Shown: in pieces, positions 2,518 through 59,720 of the stretch
How positions within the stretch are numbered: the stretch's first letter is position 1
Layout: each line of letters begins with the position of its first letter
NCBI GenBank assembly: GCA_951406725.2
Contig: OX597822.1
Coordinates: forward strand, 54,312,001 to 54,376,000
Origin: Octopus vulgaris
Lineage: Eukaryota
DNA: 64,000 nt
Direction: 5' to 3'
The notes under the pieces: generated by a model
Told to the model about the DNA's origin: nothing
What the model saw: the letters and a program-made list of their open reading frames with translations, nothing else
The model's database searches: none
Program-made: the position numbers and the translations under genes

Positions 2518-2627
2518 TTAATCTCTGATCTCAAATTTGTTGATGTTATTCTCTGTGGTTCCAAGGGTCCATATACTTTCCATAGAAGTTGGGTAGCTTG
2601 TGATATGGTCGGTTACGATGTTCTGAC
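2518..2627 (-). CDS. Putative terminal coding exon 7 of the aquaglyceroporin (cytoplasmic tail)
   Basis: cttgtag acceptor, then a phase-1-compatible open frame (G)QNIVTDHITSYPTSMESIWTLGTTENNINKFEIRD* in non-repetitive sequence. Gives a 912-nt CDS. No family motif supports it. Confidence 0.45.
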
Positions 2628-5887: not shown

Positions 5888-6686
5888 ATAGAAGGGATTG
5901 ATCATGTTAAAATCATGGCATACCGACAAGTTTATGGAATCCCACTTCGAAGATTACCTCCATGCAATTCAAGAACAAAAGATCTCACCAAATACCTACA
6001 GTCTAAAAAGAAGAAAACGTTGATAGACAACTGATACCCGCTGTACAAGACCAATACTTAAGACATCAACCACATTATTGCCAACTGCAAGAGAATGTCT
6101 TCCAGATATTCCCTTCCCATGGGACATGATGTAGTGGCCAGAACAATCTGGAACAAGAAAATAAAAAGATAAAACACCTACAGACGAAGTTGACTATATT
6201 GAGACCGATGGATCAAAAGAATATTGGTGGAACTTAAAAACTGAAACAGCTACCAAATTAAAACACAACCGGACAGATGTTATTGTGTGGGTTCACAATG
6301 AAAAAATATGTTCTGTTGTGGAAATCAGCTGTGCTCTGGACACAAATGTGGTTAGAAAAATACAAGAGAAAGAGGACATCTATGGACCATTAATAAAGAG
6401 TTGGCAAATCCAGTACGCAAGATACACTTTCAGCTTTGTAACTATTGTTATTGGAGAAACAGGACTCGTACCAACCTGCTTGTAGTAAAGTAAGGCCGAA
6501 CTTGGTTGGGTTCTTGAGGAGAGAATGCAAATCCTTAACATTGCAAATGATCGCGATATCTGAGACCATAATAATCTGCAACACCTGAAGATTTAAAGGT
6601 TGATGAACAAAACAAGCTTTCCTTCACAACTTCGCTACCAAGCCGGTGGTTGGTCAAAGCTTAATCTAAATAAGAAAAAGAAAGAA

Positions 6687-6753
<67 letters not shown>

Positions 6754-6950
6754 CATACACGCACACATGCGTACACACATTGGACTTGTTCAGTGTTTGT
6801 CTAGAAAATCCACTCACACGGCCTTGATTTTGGCCTGGGACTTTAGGTGAAGACTGCATACGAAAGGTCAAGTGGGTAGATATACAGAATTATTTAAAAA
6901 TATTTCAAAATAACAAAATAAATACAATATTTTCTCACCTTCATATTTAC

Positions 6951-7090
6951 CTGTAGACGACAAAAAATCCGAAAACGTATCCATTTCAGACCAGTGGTGA
7001 GCAACGAAGGCATGGTAAAATAACCACCCCAAGAAACTTCCTAACAAGGGCCCAACAATCGGCACCCAAAACCAATTGAGGTTCCTAAAA
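6951..7090 (-). CDS. Aquaglyceroporin exon 6 (TM6)
   Basis: tttcag|(T)FRNLNWFWVPIVGPLLGSFLGWLFYHAFVAHHWSEMDTFSDFLSST-G; WFWVPIVGP motif. Candidate donors are ACAG|GTAAAT (exon end 6951) and GAAG|GTGAGA (exon end 6939); read-through stops at 6868. Confidence 0.9.
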
Positions 7091-13649: not shown

Positions 13650-13867
13650 GTAAATGGTTCTACTCCCCAGCCTGCAAGCAACAAGACAATTCGTGGTCCC
13701 AAGTCTAATGCTGGGTTTACTGCAGGACCACCATTTAAGCCATAAGAACTGACAACAGCTGTAAGAAGCAAACCAATAGCCAATGGTGCCATGTTTGGAC
13801 TTGAAACCGTACTGTTGGAGTCAATAATTGCAAGAATTCCACCACAGAAGAAGAATGTTGCATATAC
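13650..13867 (-). CDS. Aquaglyceroporin exon 5 (second NPA box, NPALD)
   Basis: cgcag|VYATFFFCGGILAIIDSNSTVSSPNMAPLAIGLLLTAVVSSYGLNGGPAVNPALDLGPRIVLLLAGWGVEPF-T|gtaaga; 218 nt; LAIID, DLGPR and AGWG motifs. Confidence 0.95.
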
Positions 13868-14567
13868 CTGCGTAGAAATAAAGAAAACATATTTACAATG
13901 CATCAAGATGACAGCGCATGTGACGGCTTGCTGTATTAGGCCTGATGAAAATCCCCCGAATCTTGCTCCTTTATCTTCACATTTTTGATGCGACTCTCAA
14001 CTCTATACTGTTTTCTTCCTCCATCCTTCTCTAATTCCCTTTTACTCTCGCTCCCTTCTTCACCGTTTTCTATTTGTCTTTCTCCCTCCCTCCCTCTCTC
14101 TCTCTCTCGTTGGCCACACGTGACCATCGTCCGTCTTTCTTTTCCTCACGTGAACATCTTTCTTTTCCTGCACAGCCGTTAAAAAGAACGGAAGTGTTTT
14201 TCTCTCTCTTCTATCTTTTCTCTTTTCAAAAAAAGTTTCTCCCAGTGTTCACTATTTTCCTCTCGTTCTGCTCTAATGACCATCCATGTTTGTTTTCGTT
14301 CGGTTTATTTGTATGTCTCCACTGTCATTTTTTTTGTTCCCAACTTTGACCTTCCATAAATCCGAAATTTTATTTTAGAATTTATGGGAGCAACTGTCTT
14401 TGAAGACTCATATTGTCGATGTTGCTCAAAATGAAGAGTAGGAGGATAGCCGACAACTGATGAAGAGTCCATTCTCAGTGTTTACTTGTCCTGTTTTCCC
14501 CTCGTTTGTTTACGTATTTCATGTTATTTGCGGCGTTGGTGACGTCCTGCGCCCATATATGCATGTA

Positions 14568-22331: not shown

Positions 22332-22438
22332 CTGGTTACTGAAACCTACATATGTATTCGTAAACGTAGGAGGATAGGTCACAAAGATGGCGGCTGTGGT
22401 TTGATTTCTAATGTTACCATTGAATTCTTCAATGACGT
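22332..22438 (-). CDS. Aquaglyceroporin exon 4 (loop C)
   Basis: tttcag|(D)VIEEFNGNIRNQTTAAIFVTYPPTFTNTYVGFSNQ|gtcaga; 107 nt; TAxIFxTYP motif typical of aquaglyceroporins. Confidence 0.92.
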
Positions 22439-27758: not shown

Positions 27759-27896
27759 CATAACAAATTCCATATTGAAGTGCAGCTGCCAGTACAGCAG
27801 CCAATAGCTGTGATATCCAGTAGAAAGGTAGCCTCTTCCAAGAAGTCTTTTTTCCCAAACAACAGGCAAGAGTTACAGCTGGGTTGAGATGTCCAC
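27759..27896 (-). CDS. Aquaglyceroporin exon 3 (first NPA box)
   Basis: ctag|(G)GHLNPAVTLACCLGKKTSWKRLPFYWISQLLAAVLAAALQYGICY-D|gtaagg; 138 nt; MIP signature SGGHLNPAVT. Confidence 0.95.
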
Positions 27897-31972: not shown

Positions 31973-32093
31973 CTGAAACTCCTCCTGATATATAAATGCC
32001 GACCATTAAACCAATTCCAGACGCTAAATTTGCCTGGAGAGTATTCGGATTGTTACTGAAGGTGTTTTGTGCAGAAGATCCCATAACAAATGA
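31973..32093 (-). CDS. Aquaglyceroporin exon 2
   Basis: ttacag|SFVMGSSAQNTFSNNPNTLQANLASGIGLMVGIYISGGVS-G|gtaatt; 121 nt; TM2 and the SG preceding the first NPA; phase consistent with neighbouring exons. Confidence 0.92.
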
Positions 32094-33639: not shown

Positions 33640-34095
33640 GCCATTAAACTAAACTCACTAGTTCGTTCATTTAAAAAATTTTTTTTAAAGTTAAATTAAA
33701 ATATATGGGTAGTAATAGTTCTCACATCGACAATGCTCTTCTCAATACGTGTGATGTACCTGTTAAGACAATATTTTGCACTTCTTGCAGGGATGGTAAG
33801 CCAGGGATCATTCTCATATAATTTTCGGTTCCCTTCTTGATTATTCCTAGTGCTCCTACGATCACTGGTATTGTAACTGCCTTGAGATGCCACATTTTCT
33901 CAATTTCAATGAGCAGGTCTTTATATTTTCTGAGCTTGTCAAACTCTTTCGCCGAGATATTATGATCACAGGGGATGCTCATGTCGATCAATAAGCAAAC
34001 TTTATTGTTTTGGTCTTTCATGTCGATCAATAAGCAAACTTTATTGTTTTGGTCTTTCATGTCGATCAATAAGCAAACTTTATTGTTTTGGTCTT

Positions 34096-34099
<4 letters not shown>
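33640..34099 (-). mobile_element. 5'-truncated Dong/R4-like LINE (endonuclease end)
   Basis: CLLIDMSIPCDHNISAKEFDKLRKYKDL..EIEKMW..IPVIVGALG; between (TTA)n tracts. Confidence 0.85.
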
Positions 34100-34175
<76 letters not shown>

Positions 34176-34798
34176 ATTATTATTATTATTAAAAAGACGG
34201 TGAGCTGTTAGAATAGTTAGCACACCGAGGTCAACTTTGCCTTCATCCTTTCGGGGTCGATAAATCAAGTACCAGTGAAACACTGGGGTTGATGTAATCA
34301 ACTAGTTTCCTTCCCCCAACTTTCAGGCCTTGTGCCTTTAGTAGAAAGGACTATTGTTTCTATTACCATTAAAGAGTTGGTGGTGGAGTGAAATAAATTA
34401 AAGCGGGTACTAGTTACCAAGTAAGAAGAAGCGATTAGAAAATGTATCGCGACCAACATGCTAGCAGGAAGAATAGTCCTTAACTATTTCTTTAACGTGA
34501 AACCCAAATGCTGTTGTCTCTGTTCGGGCTCGTGAGCCAAGAAAGATTCTTTAGATTTAAAGAGACGTGTTGTTATCACACCCCAGACAACGTTACTACT
34601 ACCTAAATTAGAACGTAATAGCTTTTTAACATCATATTTAACGACAGTAAGACAATGACAATAGCAAAAGCGAAAAAGAATGGTGGACCATCTTGAAACA
34701 TCGCTCTTTCACGATGGTTCAAATACCATTCAGAATTATCTCTAATCAATAATTCCCTGTTTGATTGCACCTGAGACAAAGCAACGTGGAATAACTTT

Positions 34799-37069: not shown

Positions 37070-37147
37070 CCCAAATACGAATGTCCCAAGGAACTCTGCT
37101 AGAACACCTCGCAACGTTTCGCTGTGAATGTGGTGGCACCTTACCAT
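37070..37147 (-). CDS. Aquaglyceroporin (AQP3/7/9/10-like), coding exon 1
   Basis: Reverse complement reads ATG..MVRCHHIHSETLRGVLAEFLGTFVFG (MIP TM1 AEFLGT motif), 78 nt, followed by a GTAAGT donor. AAAATG start context, with an in-frame TAA 8 codons upstream. This frame is not in the ORF track. Confidence 0.9.
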
Positions 37148-46899: not shown

Positions 46900-48690
46900 T
46901 AAAACAGCTGTAAATGAATTGGTGGTGGGGTTCCTCGATTATCCCTAGAGGTCCTCCTGCATCAGGAGGACCACATCACGTGTATTCCATTTGGCCATGC
47001 TACCTTGTAAGAATTTGGAAACGAGAGGAGAGATCTTATATACATCAAGGGCCTTAAATAGCCATTTATGTGTGACCCTATCAAACGCTTATCCAAGCTA
47101 AACTCAGGTTCTTTTTGCTCTGGCAATTCTCTACAATCATTTTATTTGTAAATAATTGATCTTTGGACCCTTTAGAATTACTTTTACAGCCTTTTTGAGC
47201 TTGTAGAATTATAGAGTTCCGTTCAAGGAAAGCATATTCTTTCATTTAATATAGATGTGAGGGTCTTGTAGGTGGTGTTGAGACATGTTGCTGGTCGGTA
47301 GTTTTGTGATTTTTAGTGCCTTCAGTTTTGGGTAGAAGGTATGTTGTTCCTTCAATCAGTCAGGCAGGTATTCGCTCTAGGTTCTGGATGATATCAGTTA
47401 GAGATGCAGCGAAATTTTCGTGTATTTCTATCAAGCAATTCAGCCAGAAGTTAGGAATCTAGTCTAATCCTAGGACTTTTTTTATTTGTGAGACTTTCTA
47501 AGAACACATCTTAGCTCTTCTATTCCTATTGTTTCCCATTTCTGATCTTCAGCTTTATCCAAACTCACTTTCTTACGCTGTATCCAGTGAGCGTCAGCAC
47601 TATATTCCTTTTCGTTGTTCCATGCCTTCTTCCGGAGCTCTTCCATTCCCTCAGTCTTAGCGGGCTCCTTTTGCCAATTTCTCTATAAAATTTCTTTGCA
47701 TCTGCCATGAATACCTTGTTTTGTCGATAAAATTTGAATTTTTTAGAATACTTTCTAAGCCGTTGGACTTTCAGCTGTATTCGCCGTTTCAATAGTTCCT
47801 TGGTTGCAGGGAGGATTATAAAATTTCTGATTTTATATTTTTACTTGATTTTTCAAGCCTGTTTCTTCTTAAGATTTACTCCTCTAGCAAGTTCTTCGAG
47901 AACTGATGCATGTGCCCGCAGAGATTTGATCTCTTTTTGTAATGCTACTTTCCACTTAGGAGGCCTAGTGACATGGTTGGCTCTTTTCCGTGTGGTCCTG
48001 ATACCTTGTTGAGCAGTTACAACTTTAGCAGTGGAATAAATGAAGTTATATAAGGTTGTTAGGTCATTTCCCTTATTTCTTAAGATATTTCTAAGAGAAA
48101 CATTATATACCATGATTGTGTTGTTTTTTATGCTGTTTAAGTACTTACTAAGTTCTCTCATAATATCTTCTTTTGCTTCTATGATCTCTTTATTATTCAC
48201 CTCAAATTCTGTGTCATATCTTTTCTGGTGTTCTTGAACCAGGTCTACTTTCTCCTCTTTTTCCGCATATCTATTCTTCGCTATTCTTTTTTAAGCTTCC
48301 TCGTTGGGGTGTACTGCTTGTACACTGGGTTCTGTGCATCTATCACTTATTTCATCTGCATTGTTGCTGATTTCATTTGGTTTACCACGAGATATTTGCG
48401 TCCAAATTTGGCTAATTTTAGCGCCAGCTAACCTTTTATGCTTAATGATGTTTCTACGTACTTTACTTAATTTATTAGCATCTACATATCTGCATACTTC
48501 ATTGCCTATTAAGCTTCTCCATGAAATGTATGTTTGTACAATGAGGCTATTGTTTGGGTTTAGCTGGGCTGTATAGCAATCTCTCAACAAATCTCTATAA
48601 TTATCTCTAGTCCATTTTATGCATTTTACCTTAAGTGGTGTTTTTGGTGGCGTCACTGCAGGTGTAGGGTTAGGGTTATCCTGATTCTGG
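46900..48690 (-). mobile_element. Decayed Dong/R4-like LINE, 5' part and RT start
   Basis: KWTRDNYRDLLRDCY, PPKWKVALQKEIKSLR, RLRKYSK..YRQNKVF..AKKFY and NYRPATCL remnants. Confidence 0.75.
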
Positions 48691-48704
48691 TTACCTAGTA
48701 GATC

Positions 48705-49116
48705 TCTTTACTCTTTTTTACTCTTTTACTTGTTTCAGTTACTTGCCTGCGGCCATGCTGGAGCACCGCCTTTAGTCGAGCAAATCAACCCCAGGACTTA
48801 TTCTTTGTAAGCCTAGTGCTTATTCTATCGGTCTCTTTTGCCGAACCGCTAGGTTACGGGGACGTAAACACACCAGCATCGGTTGTCAAGCAATGCTAGG
48901 GGGACAAACACAGACACACGAACATACACACATATATATATATACATATATACGACGGGCTTCTTTCAGTTTCCGTCTACCAAGGCCACTCACAAGACTT
49001 CGGCCGGCCCGAGGCTATAGTAGAAGACACTTGCCCAAGATGTCACGCAGTGGGACTGAACCCGGAACCGTGTGGTTGGTAAGCAAGCTACTTACCGCAC
49101 AGCCACTTCTGCGCCT
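48705..49116 (-). mobile_element. SINE family A
   Basis: Full-length reverse copy. Confidence 0.85.
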
Positions 49117-51551: not shown

Positions 51552-54225
51552 TCAGTAGTTCTATTTTTATTGCGTACTTTCACTTCACTACCGAGCACAG
51601 CTCTGTGTGCCTTGGGTATGTGTTGTGATTTGTTGTGATGCTCTGATGGTTACTGTATTGAAAGTGTTTTGCGTTGGATGTGTGCAGTGCCCAGTAGTGC
51701 AACTTTCTGTATGTTATATATATTTGTAAGTCCTGGTGTTTTTGTTAGGTATTTGTCTGAATATTTTTTATCATACCTAATGCGCCTACTATGATAGGAA
51801 TTGTTTCTGATTTTAGATTCCACATTCGAGTTACCTCTATTTCCAAGTCCTTGTATTTTGAAAATTTTTCCATTTCTTTTAGAGACACGTTGTCACTGCT
51901 GGTATTGATACATCAATTAGAAAGCATTTTTTTTCTTCATGATCTCTGACAACTATATCTGGCCTATTGGCCTTAATTTCTCTATCTGTGTGTATTGGCA
52001 TATCCCAGAGTATGGTTGCTTTCTCGTTTTCCGCGACCTTTTCTGGTGTGTGCCTATCCCACCTTTTTTCTGTTGTTATTCCTTAGTGTTGACATAGCTT
52101 CCAGTGTATGTAGGTCCCAACTCTGTCGTGTCTGTGAATATATTCCTTCTTAGCCAGGACTGGGCAGCCAGAGATAATATGATTTATTGTTTCTTGTCCA
52201 TCTCCACATATTCTGCAGTTACTTATGTTTCTTTTCATTATATGTTTTTGGTAATTTCTGGTGGGGAGGCTTTCGTCTTGTGCTGCAATTAAAAATCCCT
52301 CCGTCTCTGCTTTGAGTCCTGAGCTTCTCAACCATTGCTAGGATTCTTCTCTGTCTATTTCTTTTGCATTTAGTTTAGTCCAGTATTTGCCATGAAGGGG
52401 CTTTTCTTGCCATCGTTTTATCAGAGGCTGTTGCTGTTCTAGCTTTAGTTTGGATTTCATTTGTTTTATAGCTTTTGGTGTTGTTTCTTCTTCTTCTTCT
52501 TCTTCTTCTTCTTCTTCTTCTTCTTCTTCTTCTTCTTCTTCTTCTTCTTCTTCTTCTTCTTCTACATATTTGTTAGGTAGTATGATTTCTTGTTTGTATT
52601 TTCAGCTTCCTTAAATACTGAGAACAGTTTTTTGTTTTGCTTGTGTTTTGCCGCTATTTGTATCAGTTTTCCTTGCTTCTGGAGTAGATATTTTTGCAAT
52701 CCTATGGTGGTTATTTTATAATAGTTTTCCAGCTGTATAAGGCCTCCACCAACTTCTATATGTTGTATATATAGCCTTTCTATGTCAGATTTTGGGTGGT
52801 GCATCCGAGATCCTGTCATTATTTTTCTTGTTTTCCTGTCTATTTTGGTTAGTTCATTTAGTGTCCAGTTAAGGATAATGTAGCAATAACTTATAACTGG
52901 GACGGCTAAAGTGTTAATACCTATTATCTTGTTTTTAGTAGTATTGAGCTCTGCTTTTATTATTGATCTAACTCGTCTATAGTATTCTTTCTTCATTTTC
53001 TCTTTCATTTGTGTGCGTTGTGTCTTATCTAGTTCATGGGTTCCTAAATATTTGTAAGTTTGGCTTTGGTCTAATTCTCTTATTTCATTGGCTTTATCTA
53101 GCGTGATGTTGCTACTATTAACTAGTTTTCCTCATTTCAGGGTTACTTTGGCGCATTTTTCTAATCCAAATTTCATATATATTTCTTTGGTAAATCCATG
53201 AACTGTCTGTAGTAGTGTTTCCAGCTGTTTGTCATTTGTAGCGTATAATTTTAGGTCATCCATATATAAAAGGTGGCTGATTGTTTTGCAGTAACATTTG
53301 TATCCGCATCCAGTTCTATTTAGCTTATCAGATAGAGGTGTCAGTGCCAAGCAGAAAAGGAGTGGAGAGAGCGTGTCTCCCTGGAATATTCCCCTTCTAA
53401 TGGGGATGGCTTTGGTTTTCACGAGTCCCTCTTTTGTTTGGAGCTGTAGCACTGTCTTATGTATTTTATAATTATTGGTGCTACCTTGTTAATGGCTAGT
53501 GCTTCGAGGATCCACGTGTGGGGAATACTATCAAAAGCCTTTCGGTAGTCGATCCAGGCCATACTGAGGCCTTTCTTCTTTCTGCGGCTGTCTTCAGTTG
53601 TGGCTTTATTGATCATTAGTTGATCTTTACAGTCATATGAGCTCTTGCAGCATCCTTTCAGCTCTTCTGGAAACAGGTGTTTTTTTTCAGATGTTTGTTC
53701 AATCTTTACGATATTACTGCAGTAAAGGCTTTGTACATTGTAGAGAGACGGGTTATAGGTCTGTAGTTTTGTGGTTTTGCCGTTTCATTGGATTTGGGAA
53801 TTAGGATGGTTTTCCACTTCGTGATCCATTCAGGCATTGTCTCTAGCTCTGCCAGTATATTGTTAAAGTCTTCAGCCAGCTTTTTGTGTATTCCTGTCAT
53901 GTTTTAACCAGAAGTTGGACATCTTGACGTGCCCAGGTGCCTTCCAGTTGCTTAGTCTTTGCTGTGCCTGGTTGACCTCTTCAGTTGTTATGGTAGTCCA
54001 GAGTTGCTCAGGTGCTAAGTTTGTTGTTTTAATAGTCCTTTTCTGTGGTTGTTCATTCGCCGACCATATGTCTTTCCAAAATTCTTTCACTTCTGCCGTT
54101 GGCGCTGCAGTGATGTCTATTTTATTTTTGCTAAGTTCTTGGTAGAACTTTTTGAGGTTGGAGTTGAACTGTTTGTTTTGTTCAAAGAAATGTTGGCGTT
54201 TCTCATACCGGCGGATCCTTTGTAC
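51552..54225 (-). mobile_element. Dong/R4-like non-LTR retrotransposon (RT + restriction-like endonuclease), disrupted
   Basis: NWKAPG, NYRPIT, AWIDYRKAFDSIPH, RGIFQGDTLSPLLF, HLLYMDDLKLY, CRICG..ETINHIISGC..YIHRHD and NRPDIVV..LIDVSIP; bounded by (TAA)n. Confidence 0.9.
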
Positions 54226-58072: not shown

Positions 58073-58329
58073 AAGGAAGCGGGTGAAGCCTCTCCATGTC
58101 CTGATTAATGATACATCCAGTGATGGTCCACAATAAAAGCACTGGTAATTGTGCAACCTGATAATCGCTACCTCATATATGTGACAATAAATAAACAAAA
58201 TATTGTGAACAACGGTGGTAATGAAACTGAAGCCATTGCTGGTGTCATATCGTTGCACCCGGCAGGCTCAGAGATTCTGGTCCAGCTCCAGCCTGTTGAT
58301 ATCCAGAAAGGGACCACAACACACGGCGT

Positions 58330-59720
58330 AGATGGAGCAAGCAAATTAATGCTGTGGTCGTGGAGTGTTACCACCTGAGCAACCCGGTAGATGAAAATGT
58401 CGCTCGAATTAAGGGTTACCGACAATGTATGTATGATCATTGGAGGGAAATGGGGTTGTTTCAACTCACAGAACAGAGACTATATGATCAAGCTAGAGCA
58501 ATAAGAAAAAACCGTTGGTTCGAAGCCATCAAAAAACGGGTCTTGCAAAATATCAGTAGAGATAACGATGAAAATATAGTTTTTACTAATAGAAGTAATC
58601 TCAAATCACAGGAAAGGAGCAGTGATAGTTTACTTGATGAGCGACATATAGATGATCTAAAAGAAGACAATAAAACTAATGGCGACATGACAGATGAACA
58701 AAAGGCAATCTACGACTTAATAAAGGTTGATCGATGGAAATTGAACCAAGAAACGAAAAATGGCAATGAAATTCTGAAATACATCAGAACAAACAACATC
58801 CCAGAAACAAATAATTTGATTAAGGTAGCAAGTATTGTTGCAGCAGAAAAGGTGGGTGTTGATGTCAAGAAAAAGAAATATAATGGAAGGGCCAAAAGAA
58901 AAGATCCATGGTGGAAAAGATGAATACAATCAAGGTTAGATATGCTCTCGAAGGAAATTTCCATGTTAGACCGAAAAGAGAAAGGGCAGCTTCAAAGTGA
59001 ACAAAAATACAGGGCGCTGAAAAGGAAGTATAATATTGAAAAGAAAGGTCTGAAAGTGGTAATGGAAGAACTGAAACAGCGCCTCGTTGCAAAGAAAGCA
59101 AAGATGGTAAGATACGACCAAAGAATGAAGTGTTACCACCAGAATAGGTTATTTAGAGTAAATCAGAAGAGATTCTATAAAGAAATAAATGGAGAGTGTA
59201 CTGATGAAAAGTTGATACCAGATAACAATGAAAGTCAAAGTTTTGGAGTGACATTTGGAGCAAAGACAAAGAGCAGAAGAAGGATGCTGAATAGTTGCAA
59301 GAATTGAAACAAACAGTAGTCTGCCTCAAACAAGCAGAAATAGTCATTTCAGTTGGGGAAGTGAAGGAAATCAGCAAGAAAATGAGCGCCTGGAAGGCCC
59401 ACAGTCTTGGATTATGGAGTTTATGAACCTATTTGGTATTTTATTGAATGTTGAGCGATTGCTCGGAAAAAGTATGGCGAATTGGAGGACGGACCTGATA
59501 GCATACGGAAGAAAATTAGGGACAGTAGAAATCAGGAGGGGCATCCTCCAATGGGGCCGCCTCTCCCCACTGATCTTTGTACAGTGATTGATACCACTAA
59601 CACTGATTCTGAGGAAAGCAAAAGCTGGGTATGTATTCAAAAGCCGCCAACAAAAAGTCAACCATTTGTTATTCATGGATGACCTGAAACTTTATGGTAA
59701 AGATGAAGCCCAAGTCAGTT
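58330..59720 (+). mobile_element. Decayed Dong/R4-like LINE
   Basis: ECY..GYRQ.MY..W, LTEQRL.DQAR.I, KDPWWKR, YHQNRLFRVNQKRFY and NHLLFMDDLKLY. Confidence 0.8.

Follow-up and report, generated by a model that had tools for sequence, protein, structure and literature searches.

The window analysed here, a stretch of 64,000 nucleotides from Octopus vulgaris, contains a minus-strand gene (37147-2518) with seven exons that encodes a predicted AQP3-like channel of 307 amino acids. Besides exon 5, the exons were located by motif search and tblastn within the window. Every intron presented GT-AG ends, the joined frame of the seven exons was free of stops up to 307 residues, and the product differed by one residue from O. 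sinensis XP_029642181.1 (P0125). All features that follow lie on the minus strand. Exon 1 (37070..37147, aa 1-26) carried the start codon and the first half of helix 1, including Phe25 (37073..37075) at the position of Leu84 in Trypanosoma brucei AQP2 (TbAQP2). Exon 2 (31973..32093, aa 27-67) contained Ser51 (32019..32021), which occupies filter position H2 and aligns to Phe63 of human AQP3, while exon 3 (27759..27896, aa 67-113) held the first NPA box (Asn71 at 27885-27883) and Cys111. Exon 4 (22332..22438, aa 113-148) encoded loop C and ended with Asn147-Gln148, Asn147 (22337-22335) taking the place of Asp163, the pH sensor of AQP3. Exon 5 (13650..13867, aa 149-221), whose minus strand (13867-13650) contains GLNGGPAVNPALDLGPR, encoded helices 4 and 5, loop E and the second NPA box. 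Within it, Phe155 (13847..13849) was found at the position of TbAQP2 Leu218, Val187 (13751..13753, filter position H5) at that of AQP3 Gly203, TbAQP2 Val249 and AQP11 Val204, and Pro196 (13724..13726, filter position LE1) at that of the AQP3 pore plug Tyr212. Codons 13717-13703 read AAC CCA GCA TTA GAC, giving an NPALD motif (13703..13717) in which the second NPA box is followed by Leu202 (TTA, 13708-13706) at the position of the filter Arg, and then by Asp203. Exon 6 (6939..7090, aa 221-272) contributed WVPI and helix 6, and exon 7 (2518..2627) the C-terminal tail and the stop codon of the long isoform.

Public annotations obscure this gene, both through the names aquaporin-8 and aquaporin-9 and through a broken O. 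vulgaris model. The latter (P0003, 200 aa) matched exon 5 at 100%, skipped exons 3, 4 and 6, used 29748-29569 instead, lacked the first NPA box and also covered 2549-2692 on the minus strand; a mis-annotation is the probable explanation. Pattern search and tblastn did not find in the window the 8-residue tail with which the short O. sinensis isoform (P0002; exon 6 end at 6939-6951, minus strand) terminates, and the last exon of this isoform may lie outside the window.

Exon 5, or part of it, was present in 20 of the 24 runs listed, from nine studies, none of which is recorded as RNA; their RNA status is a guess only. Four of these 20 runs were examined at the contig level. Run X19 left exon 5 uncovered, and run depths of 600 and about 10 are not to be read as a ranking of expression. 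In runs X8, X7 and X14, which came from three studies under three organism labels, one contig each extended over 13650-13870 with 0, 0 and 1 other letters, respectively, and beyond exon 5 the contigs continued with the beginning of exon 6 on one side and the last part of exon 4 on the other. These exon-exon joins indicate that the contigs represent spliced transcripts. The position of the single differing letter in X14 was not given, and the TTA codon was confirmed by X7 and X8 only. The NPALD loop E was common to O. sinensis, an O. vulgaris model and Argonauta; the Argonauta hians orthologue (P0004) was 81% identical over 289 columns and 23/23 identical over residues 185-207. Since the same loop recurred in these sequences and the contigs were spliced, a sequencing or assembly error was rejected as the origin of Leu202. 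RNA editing back to Arg was rejected as well, because A-to-I editing of TTA yields only TTG, again Leu. An earlier note on this DNA had placed Leu at the filter Arg and had argued that neither a base error nor editing explained it; the exon 5 letters, the X7 and X8 contigs and the orthologues bear out both statements. An Arg codon becomes TTA through one amino-acid change and one silent change (for example via CTA), and this two-step distance is itself unremarkable.

The AlphaFold2 model, built on a 136-row alignment, reached a pLDDT of 92.9 and a pTM of 0.89 and presented the six membrane helices and two re-entrant half helices of the MIP/aquaporin family. Membership was also indicated by the two NPA boxes (N71, N199), by TIGR00861 (179.9 bits; cut-off 171.25) and by PF00230. 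The best structural matches were AQP3 (TM 0.86; Z 37.8, rmsd 1.2 Å over 254 residues), AQP7, AQP10 and GlpF, and human AQP3, AQP7 and AQP10 and E. coli GlpF were likewise the best matches in sequence. AQP11 was not among the 50 matches listed in these structure comparisons. Like these proteins, the octopus channel has NPA/NPA boxes, the Asp203-Arg207 pair and WVPI; the signature of glycerol channels (Asp after NPA-x, GPR and WVPI) was thus intact at D203, R207 and P231-I232, as were both NPA boxes and the spliced frame, all of which had been read correctly from the letters. D203, R207 and P231-I232 represent signature positions P2-P5, and position 111 corresponds to P1, where the canonical aromatic residue was replaced by C111. 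In trees that held no classical aquaporins, the channel nested among animal aquaglyceroporins, and its top solved matches were all aquaglyceroporins. It is AQP3-like by descent, with a filter that departs from the canonical W/F-G-Y/F-R with Arg at LE2. The database label of P0002, an AQP8-like aquaammoniaporin, did not agree with S51, L202 or the AQP3-like nearest relatives. AQP8-like aquaammoniaporins keep the Arg in the filter and have His at H2.

The phmmer alignment to human AQP3 placed S51/V187/P196/L202 at F63/G203/Y212/R218, matching an S/V/P/L filter previously proposed by hand alignment against the F/G/Y/R of AQP3. A crude sum of side-chain volumes was 508 Å3 for the octopus filter, 617 for AQP3, 487 for the Arg-bearing mollusc sister channels and 460 for AQP10, while the summed hydropathy went from -6.6 to +5.6. 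The filter was thus no less bulky than that of the Arg-bearing mollusc sisters; therefore the main change in the predicted filter is the loss of charge, not a gain of width. In addition, the two acid-gate residues of AQP3, D163 and Y212, were replaced by N147 and P196.

In order to estimate how rare the loss of the Arg is, we gathered 319 proteins from three word-based searches, from cluster look-ups and from a phmmer scan against 1.84 billion representatives. Fifteen were left out for length, and the 304 aligned relatives are non-independent rows, many of them bacterial. The Arg column held Arg in 276 rows, Leu or Ile in 21, other residues in six and a gap in one, so that the near-invariance of this Arg, stated earlier as general knowledge, held among these relatives. 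All 21 Leu/Ile rows belonged to the two Arg-less groups described here, isoforms and near-duplicates included. The six other residues came from Lymnaea (Lys), a Gouania aquaporin-9-like cluster (Thr), Saprolegnia (Val) and three environmental proteins. Two of these are from animals: P0245, which represents a clingfish cluster of five members (Gouania willdenowi, labelled aquaporin-9-like), reads NPATD, and the pond snail Lymnaea protein P0178 reads NPAKD. In animal aquaglyceroporins, the loss of the Arg is thus rare, not unique. Val or Ile at helix 5 was found in 6/6 Arg-less rows compared, against 12/276 Arg rows. Position 25 was Leu in 84% and position 155 in 95% of Arg-bearing relatives, and both were Phe in the octopus channel and Argonauta; at position 111, 92% of Arg-bearing rows had Tyr and the octopus channel Cys (Y111C).

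A search of the octopus genome with exon 5 returned three places: the gene in the window, a second Arg-less copy at C3:107557787 with NPAID (codon ATA), and a canonical copy at C22:653391 with NPARD (codon AGG). The introns flanking exon 5 lay at the same two positions in all three genes. The C3 paralogue (G000:C3:107542000-107558000, 107.54-107.56 Mb; P0122, P0148, P0123, P0124) was matched by full-length orthologues from O. sinensis, O. bimaculoides and Argonauta. It fell in the same clade as the window gene and shared with it N147, I/V187, L/I202, L210 and the introns around exon 5. In contrast, the two were only 41-43% identical, and the C3 paralogue had a filter of A-I-C-I, as at the C3 locus itself, or V-I-F-L, a loop E shorter by one residue and Leu kept at positions 25 and 155. 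Its position 33 was Asn, or Asp in P0124 (on GlpF Val29, see PMC9490802). P0124, which stands for a cluster of 12 Logan proteins with NPALD, grouped with the C3 paralogue and was 55-58% identical to the octopod C3 proteins, while those of Octopus and Argonauta were 79% identical to each other. These values suggest that P0124 likely belongs to a cephalopod further removed from the octopods, perhaps a squid or cuttlefish.

A maximum-likelihood tree of 52 rows, seven of them Arg-less and none a classical aquaporin, gathered the seven Arg-less rows in one clade (100/97; bootstrap not fully settled, 0.968). This clade was sister (97/84) to Arg-bearing channels of bivalves and gastropods and was separate from the canonical copy of cephalopods. 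When the filter and loop E columns were left out (28 rows), the clade held at 95 SH-aLRT, and each Arg-less type taken alone joined the same Arg-bearing mollusc group at 98. The sister channels are of the mollusc Aqpg2 type (Mytilus P0007, Argopecten P0126, Pomacea P0087, Batillaria P0177), which took this place in all trees (97/84 with 52 rows; 98-99 in the reduced trees). They were 48-50% identical to the octopus channel and shared its non-aromatic H2, and mussel Aqpg2 is reported to have Gly at H2 and a G-G-Y-R filter (PMC12771848). Unlike the octopus channel, they retained G-G-Y-R together with Asp at 147, and their position 111 was aromatic. The derived sites common to 6/6 Arg-less rows and set against five sister rows were N147, V/I187, L/I202 and L210. 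An origin from the canonical cephalopod copy was rejected (p-AU 0.002 for a clade of all cephalopod copies), and two separate losses of the Arg were weakly rejected (p-AU 0.037). Because both Arg-less types form one clade, sister to Arg-bearing Aqpg2-type channels, they likely descend from one old loss, and together they likely make up a cephalopod subfamily not described before. The ancestor would have been an Aqpg2-type channel with a G-G-Y-R filter that lost the Arg once in cephalopods; Val or Ile would then have been gained at helix 5, partly refilling the space, and the duplication would have come later. The stems of the two types were long (1.08 and 1.26) and the tips short (0.11 and 0.15), which would fit fast change followed by constraint, and attraction between the two long stems may inflate the Arg-less clade. 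NPAL being common to cephalopod orthologues and held by purifying selection had also been raised in the earlier note: the Argonauta orthologue shares it, and column conservation between Octopus and Argonauta gave no significant signal of purifying selection for the window gene (107/121 vs 97/122, p 0.08), nor for the C3 paralogue (p 0.18). Among 39 residues off the family consensus at conserved columns, 30 were kept in Argonauta. No decapodiform or O. bimaculoides orthologue of the window gene was present among the relatives gathered by sequence searches.

On these grounds, we give about an even chance to the reading that the octopus channel has an uncharged, acid-insensitive pore for small neutral solutes, NH3 included, with weakened proton exclusion. 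The pore would admit water and small neutral solutes, from ammonia to urea- and glycerol-sized molecules, and would let few large cations through. Without the positive charge the outer barrier to protons and cations would be weakened, Na+, K+ and organic cations would still be held back mainly by the retained NPA boxes, and Phe25 and Phe155 would narrow the cytoplasmic half against large solutes. Asn147 and Pro196, in turn, would remove the pH sensor and the plug that close AQP3 in acid. Mutants of other aquaporins bear on this scheme: AQP1 with Arg changed to Val is reported to pass H+, AQP3 Y212A to gain urea permeability, and AQP4 R216A to gain glycerol and urea, while AQP1 R195A/V does not, and AQP4 H201A/R216A has a wide filter and yet passed neither glycerol nor urea (PMC6937295). 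The solute effects of such mutants vary protein by protein, and it is from them that we infer the octopus substrates. As for gating, protonation of Asp163 is described to close AQP3, and AQP7 with Asn there to stay open in acid (PMC12722722), while AQP3 Y212T has an unplugged pore and conducts glycerol faster (PMC11926279). Octopus blood contains 240-300 uM NH4+, and NH4+ secretion by the gill is coupled to pH regulation (PMC5357659). Any involvement of the channel in ammonia handling or acid-base balance is a guess, because the same gill paper explains ammonia transport by a Rhesus protein and, in its available text, mentions no aquaporin (PMC5357659).

Filters without the Arg are already known from TbAQP2, AQP11/12, SIPs and some TIPs, and these suggest other readings. 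An intracellular channel of the ER, a vesicle or a granule, convergent on AQP11/12 and plant SIPs, would not need strict proton exclusion, and leakage of protons across the plasma membrane would probably be costly. AQP11 is ER-localised with a V82/V204/A213/L219 filter (PMC12857728), AQP11/12 have Leu in place of Arg (PMC6937295), and plant SIP filters include A/S-V-P-N and I/V-V/F-P-I/F (PMC4236510). Accordingly, the octopus channel resembles AQP11 in Leu for Arg and Val at H5 with the spacing of V204 and L219, and some SIPs in S/A-V-P at three filter sites. However, AQP11/12 and SIPs lie on a different branch of the family, and the octopus channel keeps NPA/NPA, with NPAV where AQP11/12 have an NPC first box, and starts helix 1 at residue 10, its nine-residue N-terminus being neither extended nor preceded by an extra helix. 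TbAQP2 and some TIPs, moreover, lost the Arg without a necessary location in the ER, which leaves an intracellular channel rather unlikely. TbAQP2 is found at the cell surface. It is also unlikely that this is an ordinary water and glycerol channel whose changes compensate each other, with Val filling the space of the Arg and the NPA boxes alone excluding ions. A filter bulk similar to those of AQP10 and the Arg-bearing sisters, the retained Asp203-Arg207 pair and WVPI, and the description of the NPA region as the main proton barrier (PMC6937295) would agree with it, but the same genome keeps a canonical NPARD copy, and the long stems, the short tips and the 30/39 derived residues kept in Argonauta suggest a new function under constraint.

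A TbAQP2-like wide channel for NH4+, larger solutes or organic cations is improbable for the window gene. V187 and L202 align gap-free to TbAQP2 V249 and L264, both proteins are aquaglyceroporins in which Val stands at H5 and Leu at the Arg position with equal spacing (PMC8311954 for TbAQP2), H2 and LE1 of the octopus channel are non-aromatic, and in TbAQP2 the change L264R or L258Y stops pentamidine transport or reduces it strongly (PMC7473772). We consider this likeness convergent, because the two proteins are about 30% identical. Although the aliphatic residues at H5 and LE2 are present, the octopus channel has NPA/NPA and Phe/Phe where TbAQP2 has NSA/NPS and Leu84/Leu218. Restoring NPA/NPA in TbAQP2 cut pentamidine transport by 93.5%; Leu-to-Trp at 84 or 218 cut it by >90%, glycerol uptake remaining, while Met at these sites did not block it and Phe was not among the variants tested (PMC7473772). 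Of the wide pore with unusual substrates envisaged in the earlier note, altered selectivity thus stays plausible, but passage of large or organic cations in the manner of TbAQP2 is opposed by NPA/NPA, F25, F155 and the smaller filter volume relative to AQP3. With Leu at both cytoplasmic sites and Asn or Asp at position 33, the C3 paralogue is predicted to be the better candidate for cations and large solutes. Finally, a non-conducting or decaying copy is very improbable: 39 conserved columns have changed, Y111C among them, and neither decapodiforms nor O. bimaculoides yielded an orthologue among the relatives gathered, but a seven-exon open frame, spliced transcripts and the close agreement with Argonauta over the whole protein and over loop E all speak against decay.

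A broader proposal is that one loss of the Arg followed by duplication gave coleoids a subfamily convergent on TbAQP2 and AQP11, made of ungated NH3/H+ (net ammonium) or cation channels serving ammonia and acid-base physiology. We hold it to be unlikely; if true, they would provide a natural case of animal aquaglyceroporins in which charge passes through the monomer pore. A full-text literature search, with most subscription journals outside its reach, found no description of cephalopod aquaglyceroporin filters. The available text of aquaporin surveys in molluscs, annelids and across animals (PMC12771848, PMC8700629, bioRxiv 2022.07.25.501387), whose supplements may hold sequences, did not mention an Arg-less octopus channel, and neither did that of an Octopus maya transcriptome paper (PMC8976471). 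What is known of the role of the filter Arg comes mostly from engineered mutants and a single parasite channel. What is new here is a pair of natural animal Arg-less paralogues beside a canonical copy and close Arg-bearing mollusc sisters. With this set, one could test directly how the Arg and the NPA boxes share the task of excluding protons and cations, and why the pairing of Val at helix 5 with Leu at the Arg site recurs in TbAQP2, AQP11 and octopus. The Arg-less octopus channels are also candidates for cephalopod ammonia handling.

Elsewhere on the same contig, about 320-380 kb from the window, MIP-family matches with long open frames were observed at G000:C9:53930597-53996926, and similar groups occurred on C1 and C3. 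Within the window, the introns of the octopus channel gene contained many SINE-like and microsatellite repeats, and broken frames resembling LINE reverse transcriptases were recognised by eye at 47856-48707, 52565-54225, 58300-59304, 6165-6485 and 33722-34207.
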